Positions 26,335-39,224 of a stretch of DNA of 64,000 nt are shown piece after piece. Positions within the stretch are counted from its first letter, which is position 1; every line of letters begins with the position of its first letter. The position numbers and the translations under genes were made by a program. The notes beneath the pieces were generated by a model. The model was not told the DNA's origin and searched no databases. It was given only the letters and a program-made list of their open reading frames with translations. Location: NCBI RefSeq assembly GCF_054482525.1, contig NZ_CM137006.1; one strand, given 5' to 3'.

Positions 26335-26452
26335 GCTCGATCGGTCCCCTCTCCCTTGAGGGAGAGGGTTAGGGTGAGGGGGAAATGCGCACGCTGATGC
26401 CCTCACCCCGGCCCTCTCCCACAGGGAGAGGGAGAAAACATTAAACGGAGCA
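26335..26452. repeat. GC-rich palindromic intergenic repeat (Box C/RSA-like; units cccctctccc…gggagaggg and ccctcacccc)
   Basis: Read directly; a permuted inverted copy occurs at 35336..35490. Confidence 0.7.
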
Positions 26453-34576: not shown

Positions 34577-35335
34577 ATGAGCCTGACCCTCACACTTACT
34601 GGCACTGGCGGCGCACAGGGCGTTCCGGCATGGGGCTGCGAGTGCGTGGCCTGCGCCAGAGCGCGGCGCTCACCGCAGTATCGCCGCCAGCCATGCAGCG
34701 GCGTCGTGAAGTTTAACGACGCGATCACCCTGATCGACGCCGGGCTGCACGATCTCGCCGATCGCTGGTCGCCCGGATCGTTCCAGCAGTTTTTGCTGAC
34801 GCACTACCATATGGATCACGTGCAGGGGCTGTTTCCGCTGCGCTGGGGTGTGGGCGATTCGATCCCGATCTACGGCCCGCCGGATGAACAGGGCTGCGAC
34901 GATCTGTTTAAACATCCGGGCCTGCTTGATTTCAGCCACACGATGGAACCGTTTGTGGTGTTTGATTTACAGGGGTTACAGGTCACGCCCCTGCCGCTCA
35001 ACCACTCAAAACTGACCTTCGGTTATCTGCTGGAAACGGCACACAGCCGGGTGGCGTGGCTGTCTGACACCGCTGGCTTGCCGGAAAAAACGCTGAAATT
35101 TTTACGCAATAATCAGCCGCAGGTAATGGTGATTGATTGCAGCCACCCGCCGCGCGAGGATGCACCGCGTAATCACTGTGATTTAAATACCGTGCTTGCG
35201 CTGAATCAGGTTATCCGCTCGCCACGGGTGATTCTGACCCATATCAGCCACCAGTTTGATGCGTGGCTGATGGAAAACGCACTGCCGTCGGGGTTTGAGG
35301 CGGGGTTTGATGGGATGGAGATTGGGGTGGCGTGA
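34577..35335 (+). CDS. phnP: Metallo-beta-lactamase-fold phosphodiesterase PhnP, 252 aa
   Basis: HxHxDH motif ([10 protein letters not shown]). Confidence 0.9.
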
Positions 35336-35490
35336 TGGGAGGGAATGTGCGCGCTGGCCCCCTCACCCTAACCCTCTCCCCAGAGGGGCGAGGGGACCGA
35401 TTGTGCTCGATATTGAATATTGCGCTGGTTTTCTCCCTCGCCCCATTGGGGAGAGGGCCGGGGTGAGGGGCGATGCCTGCTCCATACCCA
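35336..35490. repeat. GC-rich palindromic intergenic repeat, inverted and module-permuted relative to 26335..26452
   Basis: Shares cccctcaccc / ccctctcccc / gggagaggg / gtgctcgat modules with the phnD-phnE repeat. Confidence 0.7.
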
Positions 35491-35493
35491 ACA

Positions 35494-35823
35494 TCAACGC
35501 CCATACTCATCTTCCATTCTCCGCTCTTCATCTTCTAGCTGCCGACGCTCCTGATCCAGCTGGCGCTGGCGATCGTCCAGCTGCCTGCGGCGATCTTCAA
35601 ACTGGCGGCGGCGATCGTCATATTGTCTGCGCCGATCGTCGTTCACTTCACGCTGCCAGCCGTCGTCGCGCGAATCTTCATAGTCTCGCCCACGGTCAGG
35701 GTTATAAGCGTCGTTAATCGCCTGCTGAATATTGCCAATGGTGTCGTCGATAATATCGGCCTGGGCCGGAACGGTGGACAGCGTGAGCAGGGTGAATAAA
35801 AGAAATAGCGGAAAGCGTTTCAT
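35494..35823 (-). CDS. yjdP: Small secreted Arg/Asp/Glu-rich protein YjdP, 109 aa
   Basis: Signal peptide MKRFPLFLLFTLLTLSTVPAQA followed by charged low-complexity RRRQ repeats. Confidence 0.8.
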   Translation of the reverse strand: MKRFPLFLLFTLLTLSTVPAQADIIDDTIGNIQQAINDAYNPDRGRDYEDSRDDGWQREVNDDRRRQYDDRRRQFEDRRRQLDDRQRQLDQERRQLEDEERRMEDEYGR

Positions 35824-35891
35824 TAGCCAACCTCAAAAAGAAACTCTATCCACATTAGTCATTACTCATCCATGCAAGTAGTGGATGAATC

Positions 35892-36226
35892 TCAATTTCT
35901 CCGCTGCTCTATTGCCGTAATCGCCTCCACGCGTTGTTGATGACGACCGCCTTCGTACTGCGCGCCCAGCCACGCATCCACAATCATTTTTGCCAGTTCG
36001 AGGCCAACCACTCGTGAACCAAAAGCCAGTGCAACTTCACTGGCGTAATGCGGATAATCAGTACGCTCTGACGACCTGGTTTCTTTATCAATCCCCTCAC
36101 TCATTGACCATGAATAAAAGGCTGGCACAGCAACGCAGAATCCTGCGGTGCCAGCGACATGACCGCCCATTGCTCCGGTACGTTTTTTAATAAAAAACAC
36201 CGGTTGCATTGATTAATTGTGCTCAG
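35892..36226 (-). pseudogene. rpiB: rpiB (ribose-5-phosphate isomerase B) remnant: C-terminal about 67 codons recognisable, internal segment missing, 5-prime part unrelated
   Basis: Translation ends …AFGSRVVGLELAKMIVDAWLGAQYEGGRHQQRVEAITAIEQRRN which I recognise as the RpiB C-terminus; …SSERTDYPHYAS… is also present, but the segment between (with the catalytic Cys) is absent and the N-terminal 38 codons do not resemble RpiB. Confidence 0.5.
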
Positions 36227-36241
36227 GGTAATGACTCCAAC

Positions 36242-36745
36242 TTATTGATAGTGTTTTATGTTCAGATAATGCCCGATGACTTTGTCATGCAGCTCCACCG
36301 ATTTTGAGAACGACAGCGACTTCCGTCCCAGCCGTGCCAGGTGCTGCCTCAGATTCAGGTTATGCCGCTCAATTCGCTGCGTATATCGCTTGCTGATTAC
36401 GTGCAGCTTTCCCTTCAGGCGGGATTCATACAGCGGCCAGCCATCCGTCATCCATATCACCACGTCAAAGGGTGACAGCAGGCTCATAAGACGCCCCAGC
36501 GTCGCCATAGTGCGTTCACCGAATACGTGCGCAACAACCGTCTTCCGGAGACTGTCATACGCGTAAAACAGCCAGCGCTGGCGCGATTTAGCCCCGACAT
36601 AGCCCCACTGTTCGTCCATTTCCGCGCAGACGATGACGTCACTGCCCGGCTGTATGCGCGAGGTTACCGACTGCGGCCTGAGTTTTTTAAGTGACGTAAA
36701 ATCGTGTTGAGGCCAACGCCCATAATGCGGGCAGTTGCCCGGCAT
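36242..36745 (-). CDS. insB: IS1 InsB frame, 167 aa (expressed as InsAB-prime transposase by -1 frameshift)
   Basis: Translation matches IS1 InsB; overlaps insA 3-prime end around the ttaaaaaactc slippery motif. Confidence 0.9.
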
Positions 36746-36939
36746 CCAACGCCATTCATGGCCATATCAATGATTTTCTGGTGCGTACCGGGTTGAGAAG
36801 CGGTGTAAGTGAACTGCAGTTGCCATGTTTTACGGCAGTGAGAGCAGAGATAGCGCTGATGTCCGGCGGTGCTTTTGCCGTTACGCACCACCCCGTCAGT
36901 AGCTGAACAGGAGGGACAGCTGATAGAAACAGAAGCCAC
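36664..36939 (-). CDS. insA: IS1 InsA, 91 aa
   Basis: [43 protein letters not shown]… zinc-finger/HTH protein of IS1. Confidence 0.92.
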
Positions 36940-37238
36940 TGGAGCACCTCAAAAACACCATCATACACTAAATCAGTAAGTTGGCAGCATCACCTGTGCT
37001 CAGTATTTGCCGAAGTACAATATATATAATAAATATATAAAACACCTCATATTATTTACAGAGATAATAAATTCGCGTACTTTTCCCTCTTCAGCACAAA
37101 TGCCTAATAAAGTGGCGCGTTCAGCTCACACTTCTACTTATTAAAGTCGCAATTTCCCAATTATGATAACGCCAGCTTTAAATGACGTATTTTGCATGGA
37201 TTACATATTTACGACATAAATGATAAATGGAGATTTAT

Positions 37239-39224
37239 ATGAATAACTCTCGGTTATTCCGTTTGAGCAGGATTGTTATTGCGTTAACTGCCGCCAGCGG
37301 CATGATGGTAAATACCGCTTACGCAACAGATGAAGCGAAAGCCGCCACTCAATATACCCAACAGATTAATCAGAATTACGCCAAATCATTACCTTTTAGC
37401 GATCGTCAAGATTTTGACGATGCCCAGCGTGGATTTATCGCTCCGCTGCTGGATGAAGGTATTCTGCGTGATGCTAACGGCAAAGTTTACTACCGCGCAG
37501 ACGATTACAAATTTGATATTAATGCCGCTGCGCCGGAAACCGTAAACCCCAGCCTGTGGCGTCAGTCGCAAATCAACGGTATTTCTGGCCTGTTCAAAGT
37601 CACCGATAAAATGTATCAGGTGCGCGGCCAGGATATCTCTAACATTACGTTCGTTGAGGGCGAGAAAGGCATTATTGTTATCGACCCGCTGGTGACGCCG
37701 CCTGCCGCAAAAGCCGCACTTGATCTTTACTTCCAGCATCGTCCGCAAAAACCGATTGTTGCTGTGATTTACACCCACAGCCACGCCGACCATTATGGCG
37801 GTGTGAAAGGCATTATCTCTGAAGCGGATGTTAAATCCGGCAAAGTGCAGGTGATCGCTCCGGCAGGCTTTATGGACGAAGCCATCAGCGAAAACGTGCT
37901 GGCGGGTAACATCATGAGCCGCCGTGCGCTCTACTCTTACGGTCTGTTACTGCCGCACAACGCGCAAGGCAACGTGGGCAACGGCCTGGGCGTGACGCTG
38001 GCAACCGGCGACCCGAGCATTATTGCACCGACTAAAACTATCGTCAGAACTGGCGAGAAGATGATTATCGACGGCCTGGAGTTTGACTTCCTGATGACTC
38101 CGGGTAGCGAAGCGCCAGCCGAAATGCACTTCTATATTCCGGCCCTGAAAGCCCTGTGTACCGCCGAGAACGCCACGCATACCCTGCACAACTTCTACAC
38201 TCTGCGCGGCGCGAAAACCCGCGATACCAGCAAGTGGACCGAGTACCTGAACGAAACGCTGGATATGTGGGGTAACGACGCGGAAGTACTGTTTATGCCG
38301 CACACCTGGCCGGTCTGGGGCAATAAGCATATCAATGATTATATTGGTAAATATCGCGATACTATCAAGTACATTCACGACCAGACCCTGCACCTGGCGA
38401 ACCAGGGCTACACCATGAATGAAATCGGCGACATGATTAAGCTGCCGCCTGCGCTTGCCAATAACTGGGCCAGCCGCGGCTATTACGGTTCTGTCAGCCA
38501 CAACGCCCGCGCGGTGTATAACTTCTATCTTGGCTATTACGACGGTAACCCGGCTAACCTGCATCCATATGGTCAGGTGGAGATGGGTAAACGTTACGTG
38601 CAAGCTCTGGGCGGTTCTGCCCGCGTCATCAACCTGGCGAAAGAAGCGAACAAGCAAGGTGATTATCGCTGGTCGGCAGAACTGCTGAAACAGGTGATTG
38701 CCGCCAACCCTGGTGACCAGGTCGCGAAGAATCTGCAAGCGAATAACTTTGAACAGCTGGGCTATCAGGCCGAGTCCGCCACCTGGCGCGGTTTCTACCT
38801 GACCGGCGCGAAAGAGCTGCGCGAAGGGGTGCATAAATTCAGCCACGGCACCACCGGTTCCCCGGACACCATTCGCGGAATGTCGGTCGAAATGCTGTTC
38901 GACTTTATGTCCGTTCGCCTCGATAGTGCGAAAGCCGCGGGTAAAAATATCAGCCTGAACTTCAATATGAGCAACGGCGATAACCTCAACCTGACGCTGA
39001 ACGATAGCGTGCTTAACTACCGTAAAACGCTGCAACCTGAAGCCAACGCCTCTTTCTACATCAGCCGTGAAGATCTTCACGCCGTGCTGACCGGACAAGC
39101 CAAAATGGCGGATCTGGTAAAAGCGAAGAAAGCCAAAATTATTGGCAATGGCGCGAAACTGGAAGAAATTATTGCCTGTCTGGATAATTTCGATTTGTGG
39201 GTGAATATCGTAACCCCAAATTAA
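37239..39224 (+). CDS. yjcS: Metallo-beta-lactamase-fold alkyl/aryl-sulfatase YjcS, 661 aa
   Basis: Signal peptide, [10 protein letters not shown] metal-binding motif, C-terminal SCP2-like region; start at MNNSRLF. Confidence 0.88.

Follow-up and report, generated by a model that had tools for sequence, protein, structure and literature searches.

Does a short ORF which is annotated as an isomerase encode one, or is it a relic, and if so, of which event? The question is raised by the minus strand of the window (the whole stretch of 64,000 nucleotides that was analysed), on which phnMNOP, yjdP (35494-35823), an ORF of 105 codons and an IS1 element are arranged in this order, with yjcS (37227-39224) in divergent orientation. 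The RefSeq/PGAP name of the ORF is ‘RpiB/LacA/LacB family sugar-phosphate isomerase’. This name overstates the ORF; very probably, the region has no function and is a deletion scar in the D-allose (als) regulon. The features of the locus are listed in Table 1.

Table 1. Features of the yjdP-yjcS interval in the window
Feature	Position	Strand	Remarks
rpiB-yjdP spacer, 68 nt	35824..35891	minus	colinear with als+ strains
Chimeric ORF (‘rpiB remnant’), 105 aa	35892..36209	minus	RefSeq WP_001183282.1
rpiB 3' fragment, nt 319-450 (residues 107-149 and stop codon)	35892..36023	minus	99-100% identity to E. coli als+ alleles
rpiB nt 313-450 (3' fragment and CTGGCT)	35892-36029	minus	99% identity to BL21
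CTGGCT microhomology at the Delta2 junction	36024..36029	minus	rpiB nt 154-159 and nt 313-318, both parental contexts compared
rpiB 5' fragment, nt 84-153 (residues 29-51, including SSERTDYPHYAS)	36030..36099	minus	~90% identity to BL21
Filler of 8 nt, TCAATGAG, at the Delta1 junction	36100..36107	minus	
als operon 3' end, antisense: alsK stop and one codon (36108-36113), terminal hairpin	36108..36159	minus	79% identity to BL21
Right part of the 78-bp haplotype-specific segment	36160..36217	minus	holds the ORF ATG and an A/T-rich hairpin (36175-36203)
IS1 target-site duplication, copy CTGAGCACA	36218..36226		inside the 78-bp segment
IS1, 768 bp, insA and insB' intact	36227..36994	minus	transcribed toward the remnant and yjdP; simple later insertion, outside the scar
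Second target duplication copy (36995-37003) and left 11 nt of the 78-bp segment	36995..37014	minus	

The chimeric ORF and the loss of isomerase function

The translation of the ORF is MQPVFFIKKRTGAMGGHVAGTAGFCVAVPAFYSWSMSEGIDKETRSSERTDYPHYASEVALAFGSRVVGLELAKMIVDAWLGAQYEGGRHQQRVEAITAIEQRRN. It contains two pieces of E. coli RpiB, namely residues 29-53, which include SSERTDYPHYAS, and the C-terminal residues 107-149. An earlier note on this DNA, made from the letters alone, had stated that the ORF ends with the RpiB C-terminus and carries SSERTDYPHYAS, and the translation together with the database matches bears this out. Pfam LacAB_rpiB (PF02502) was matched with E=7.5e-12 at profile positions 102-138 of 138 only. 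The E. coli RpiB structures 1NN4 and 2VVR were matched with E~3e-33 in two separate stretches, ORF residues 38-62 corresponding to RpiB 29-53 and ORF residues 60-105 to RpiB 104-149. The likeness to RpiB is far above chance.

RpiB residues 1-28 and 54-106 are absent from the ORF. The second gap comprises 53 codons, in line with the roughly 50 middle codons, including the catalytic Cys, which had been reported as missing. In EcRpiB, Cys66 acts as catalytic base and His99 also takes part in catalysis (PMC4783025); both (E. coli numbering) fall within the second gap. Neither the complete RpiB/LacA/LacB domain of ~140 residues nor the catalytic Cys66/His99 of a functional PF02502 member is found in the ORF, and the remnant has neither a promoter of its own nor the als regulon context with a divergent alsR. 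Since the first beta-strand region, Cys66, His99 and the rpiB promoter are all missing, the product cannot be an isomerase.

None of the first 37 codons derives from rpiB. They consist of sequence from the 78-bp segment, the antisense als hairpin with the alsK stop codon, and the filler of 8 nt. The head had been described as 38 codons unrelated to RpiB; the lack of relationship holds, the length has to be corrected to 37. The 122 bp beside IS1, in which a fusion joint to rpiR/als sequences had been suspected, are indeed such a joint, made up of the haplotype-specific 78-bp segment followed by the als terminal hairpin and the alsK stop codon, i.e. yjcS-alsK intergenic material. A derivation of these 122 bp from rpiR/alsR was rejected, as they match the alsK-distal spacer instead.

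A promoter scan ahead of the ORF gave no recognisable or promoter-like site, and no Shine-Dalgarno sequence is visible on direct reading before the ATG at 36209. Within the ORF, the als hairpin (-21.6 kcal/mol) is sense-oriented, and a T-run, CTTTTATT, comes after it. To judge from these sequence features, the remnant is probably not expressed. As expected of a pseudogene, the remnant lies in the orthologous position, is homologous to the intact gene at the nucleotide level, has defined deletion junctions and goes back to an intact ancestral state; the ‘isomerase’ annotation would best be taken as a pseudogene. In RefSeq, the ORF has a protein accession and no pseudogene flag, the window-type protein being WP_001183282.1 and the B1-type protein WP_001183287.1. 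The exact window-type protein is present in >15,000 assembly-index blocks, and the 90% identity cluster of the ORF protein holds 912 distinct sequences.

Deletion junctions and the neighbouring IS1

The anatomy of the remnant was resolved by BLAST and by alignment of the window against als+ BL21. In BL21 and two other als+ strains the order is yjcS, alsK-E-C-A-B, alsR, rpiB and yjdP. Compared to this arrangement, the window lacks two segments. Delta1 (6,557 bp) reaches from a point within alsK, close to its 3' end, to rpiB nt 83. It contains alsK (all but the last sense codon and the stop), alsE, alsC, alsA, alsB and alsR, together with the 358 bp between alsR and rpiB, the promoter of rpiB and its nt 1-83. 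Delta2 is an in-frame deletion of 159 bp between CTGGCT repeats, by which residues 54-106 are removed. The 78-bp segment (36160-36226 with 36995-37014) is missing in BL21. The earlier note had proposed that the ORF is either decaying as a pseudogene or a scar left by an older rearrangement, and the two deletions with defined junctions relative to als+ strains, together with the non-synonymous changes in the 5' fragment given below, agree with it.

The terminal hairpin of the als operon (36121-36155) is kept in the remnant despite 21% sequence divergence from BL21, including a compensatory pair change from GTTGGCAC/GTGCCAAC to GCTGGCAC/GTGCCAGC. The retained hairpin may still matter, e.g. as a terminator or insulator for transcription from the yjcS side. 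A further structure was observed at 36025-36044 (minus strand), where the Delta2 junction and the Q49E substitution (C to G) give rise to a 7-bp stem without mismatch, GCCAGTG/CACTGGC, with TTTTGG behind it. This terminator-like hairpin is absent from intact rpiB. The left CTGGCT repeat lies within the stem, a structure that may have promoted slippage.

A perfect target duplication of 9 bp, which reads CTGAGCACA and not CTGGCACA, borders IS1. When IS1 and one copy of the duplication are removed from the window, the remaining 638 nt match the locus of E. coli PCN033, which has no IS1, with 100% identity. The insertion site is located 17 bp upstream of the ORF ATG and ~230 bp upstream of yjcS, and the exact IS1/remnant junction was found in 0 of 5,426 complete E. 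coli genomes. Because IS1 adjoins the remnant, and because it caused a larger deletion at the same locus in NCTC9966, where a genuine IS1-bounded deletion spans the whole interval, it might be supposed that the truncation was produced by the neighbouring IS1 via an adjacent deletion. Such an event is recognised by a junction at an IS1 end and by the lack of a target duplication. Here, however, the duplication is perfect on both sides, neither deletion junction meets an IS1 end, and an IS1-free allele with an identical remnant exists in ~1,570 genomes. The target duplication and the identity of the IS1-less allele to PCN033 refute a truncation made by IS1, the probability of which is negligible; the same evidence supports the statement of the earlier note that the remnant is not a product of the adjacent element.

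Three other genomes carry IS1 44 bp from the site in the window, with a different target duplication, AGGTGTTTT. The A/T-rich spacer between yjcS and the remnant (36995-37060 region) has taken independent IS1 insertions, e.g. in EF5-18-41, and these repeated insertions suggest a local target preference of IS1.

On the other side of yjdP, the phnP-yjdP spacer (35336-35493) contains a long GC-rich inverted repeat (arms 35359-35394 and 35435-35470) with the motif GGAGAGGGnnnGGGTGAGGG; a pair of this motif occurs again ~9 kb away at 26361-26419. Depending on the strain, the spacer measures 27 to 158 nt, which suggests a small palindromic repeat element that some strains have and others lack. A search of 35200-37300 against Rfam gave only sub-threshold plant-miRNA matches from this hairpin repeat, which are spurious.

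Distribution and divergence of the remnant

Full-length rpiB was detected in 3,402 of 5,426 complete E. coli genomes (63%), the two-piece remnant without IS1 in ~1,570 (~29%), and no rpiB at all in ~447. The rpiB coverage drops sharply from 100% to 48%, and no intermediates with Delta1 only or Delta2 only were present among the 60 matches listed. The 78-bp segment occurs as a single copy in exactly 1,570 genomes, all of them remnant carriers, and is absent from all als+ E. coli. Carriers include EAEC 042, O104:H4 2011C-3493, O26, O103, O111 and PCN033. The haplotype is common to phylogroup D-type and B1-type strains, which are 2-4% apart across it, and it is old. An exact-match search with the 23-mer of the Delta2 junction gave 0 matches in the species-representative genomes; with this search, the remnant was not found outside E. 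coli.

E. coli has several alleles of the yjcS-yjdP interval: besides als with rpiB (63%) and the remnant (29%), an O157:H7 island and IS1- or IS903B-bounded deletions exist. In O157:H7, a sensor-kinase gene ends 68 nt before yjdP and rpiB is unannotated.

At 6 of its 70 nt, the 5' fragment departs from the als+ alleles of E. coli; four of these changes are non-synonymous (V30G, G34E, W36R and Q49E) and two synonymous. The B1-type fragment has 8 differences. Several substitutions had been claimed for the retained segment in the earlier note. Four were found, but SSERTDYPHYAS itself is unchanged at the protein level and the changes flank the motif. Between E. coli A-type strains and E. whittamii, functional rpiB differs at 21-22 nucleotides, yet the encoded protein is the same, and the 70-nt stretch which corresponds to the 5' fragment is essentially invariant in alleles of the E. 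coli phylogroups A, B2 and F. For the latter reason, a derivation of the 5' fragment from a known divergent E. coli rpiB allele was rejected. Set against this invariant functional protein, the four amino acid changes indicate that the remnant is decaying, and the constraint on the 5' fragment is relaxed. The remnant lineages differ from each other at G/V30, E/D34 and R/W36. Other circulating variants are L61P, A56P and an R to S exchange in the GGRH motif (on 130 contigs), as well as shortened forms of 70 aa and 92 aa. In every complete genome sampled the ORF is intact, and no purifying selection on the remnant protein was found in what is a small sample.

Divergence is distributed unevenly. 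Compared to als+ alleles, the 5' fragment differs at 6/70 nt, whereas the 3' fragment plus spacer differs at 1-2/206 nt (Fisher p=0.001-0.004). Other species have 19-20 differences across these 206 nt. When the two remnant types are compared with each other, the 3' fragment plus spacer differs at 1/206 nt and the left block at 8/208 nt (p=0.037). The Delta2 junction is also the exact end of a private divergent block of ~290 nt, in which a stretch of the yjcS-proximal spacer is followed by the 78-bp segment, the als hairpin and the 5' fragment of rpiB. The low 3' divergence could reflect constraint on the 3' part and not pure neutrality. Polymorphisms common to als+ and remnant haplotypes are present in both flanks, and the divergence of yjcS and yjdP does not follow the als status; that the flanking genes track this status was rejected accordingly, the flanks being recombined. 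The simplest reading of the asymmetry is an old deletion, the shared flanks of which were homogenised by recombination with als+ alleles. In the B1-type yjcS, a block of ~700 nt (equivalent to ~37330-38130) is 10-20% diverged from both the window and BL21, while the remaining gene is 0-5% diverged, which indicates a recombinant import.

Origin of the scar and comparison with known systems

E. whittamii and a further divergent Escherichia lineage (SCPM-O-B-8794) have rpiB and the als operon at this locus; thus, the als+ state is ancestral and the remnant derived. The order and the mechanism of the two deletions we infer as follows. The ancestral E. coli chromosome would have carried yjcS-alsKECAB-alsR-rpiB-yjdP. 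From this, 6,557 bp between the alsK 3' end and rpiB nt 83 were presumably lost, the joint receiving the 8 nt of filler, and 159 bp within rpiB would have been lost between the CTGGCT repeats, which fits slippage or microhomology-mediated joining. The surviving fragments (residues 29-53 and 107-149) are by chance in frame with 37 intergenic or antisense codons, and gene callers report a 105-aa ‘isomerase’ as a result. Later, in the strain of the window, IS1 transposed into the 78-bp segment.

An origin in a single step is conceivable as well. The ~290-nt block might have been imported from a divergent Escherichia by homology-facilitated illegitimate recombination with its right end at CTGGCT, so that als was replaced and the 159 bp were deleted at once. 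The exact stop of the divergent block at the Delta2 junction fits this proposal, as does the sequence to the right of it, which is typical of E. coli (1-2 differences in 206 nt compared to 19-20 in other species). Two to three states of the 5' fragment (nt 87 G, Q49E and the B1-type nt 120 C) are also found in SCPM-O-B-8794, and no als+ E. coli has the 78-bp segment. On the other hand, V30G (window type only), G34E followed by D, and R/W36 arose after the remnant had diversified inside E. coli, so that much of the divergence is decay in situ. Recombination with als+ alleles over the shared 3' flank accounts for the asymmetry just as well, and both flanks contain polymorphisms common to als+ and remnant haplotypes. 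A donor lineage with the 78-bp segment was not found: the degenerate pattern GGRHQQRVEA identified two loci only, both als+ (E. whittamii and SCPM-O-B-8794), and the retrieved loci stop short of the yjcS-alsK spacer. We consider the import unlikely.

Retention of a function was weighed against the same data, either for the 105-aa ORF or its RpiB-derived C-terminal half as a small protein, or for the rpiB 3' end as promoter or leader of yjdP. The open frame in all sampled complete genomes would agree with this, and so would the near-invariant 3' fragment and spacer between the remnant types. Against it stand the lack of a recognisable promoter and of a visible Shine-Dalgarno sequence, the strong sense-strand hairpin followed by the T-run inside the ORF, and the deletion of the catalytic residues. 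Radical substitutions and shortened forms circulate, including the R to S change in GGRH mentioned above. The chance probability of an open 37-codon upstream stretch is ~0.17, and IS1 directly upstream is tolerated here and in three other genomes. A retained function is therefore very improbable. Scarcely better is the chance of a combined reading, according to which 35824-36029 would be near-invariant as yjdP promoter or leader or via a small protein from the chimeric ORF, while the scar block was perhaps imported from other Escherichia at CTGGCT; it is quite improbable. The preferred reading remains the non-functional scar of two deletions.

The feature is common, is present in RefSeq under a name that claims too much, and matches the known als-negative genotype; no new biology is revealed by the scar. 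Its value lies in annotation hygiene. RefSeq and UniRef list the chimera in thousands of genomes as an isomerase, also as ‘ribose 5-phosphate isomerase B’, and the mis-named protein can mislead metabolic reconstructions because strains with the remnant have neither allose use nor RpiB as a back-up for RpiA. In addition, two defined junctions and a private 78-bp segment make the scar a clean old presence/absence marker in a multi-allelic sugar-utilisation locus.

The rpiB gene of K-12 and BL21 (alsI; structures 1NN4 and 2VVR; WP_000716794.1) encodes the bifunctional allose-6-phosphate/ribose-5-phosphate isomerase B. The remnant resembles it in its orthologous position directly upstream of yjdP with the same 68-nt spacer, and in sequence, residues 107-149 being identical and residues 29-53 84% identical. 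It differs from it by the lack of residues 1-28 and 54-106 (with Cys66 and His99), by the 37 unrelated N-terminal codons, and by the absence of the AlsR-regulated promoter and of the divergent alsR-alsBACEK genes. The als-negative strains EAEC 042 and E. coli W have no als operon and do not use allose (PMC2808357; PMC3032704). In these two papers rpiB is called absent from als-negative strains and the remnant is not described, and a literature search retrieved no paper describing the remnant itself; in fact, a two-piece remnant of 208 bp survives. EAEC 042 (NC_017626) belongs to the same haplotype: it has the 78-bp segment, and its remnant ORF is 97.8% identical. The window is distinguished from it by the extra IS1 in the 78-bp segment, at a site unseen in 5,426 complete genomes. 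Like the remnant, the O157:H7 sugar island and the IS-bounded deletions lie between yjcS and yjdP-phn, and in all of them als is replaced or lost. They differ from the remnant in that the O157:H7 allele is an unrelated cluster of ~9.8 kb (two-component system, ABC transporter, kinase, aldolase and lyxose/mannose isomerase), and in that the deletions of NCTC9966 and MSB1_9D are bounded by IS1 or IS903B.
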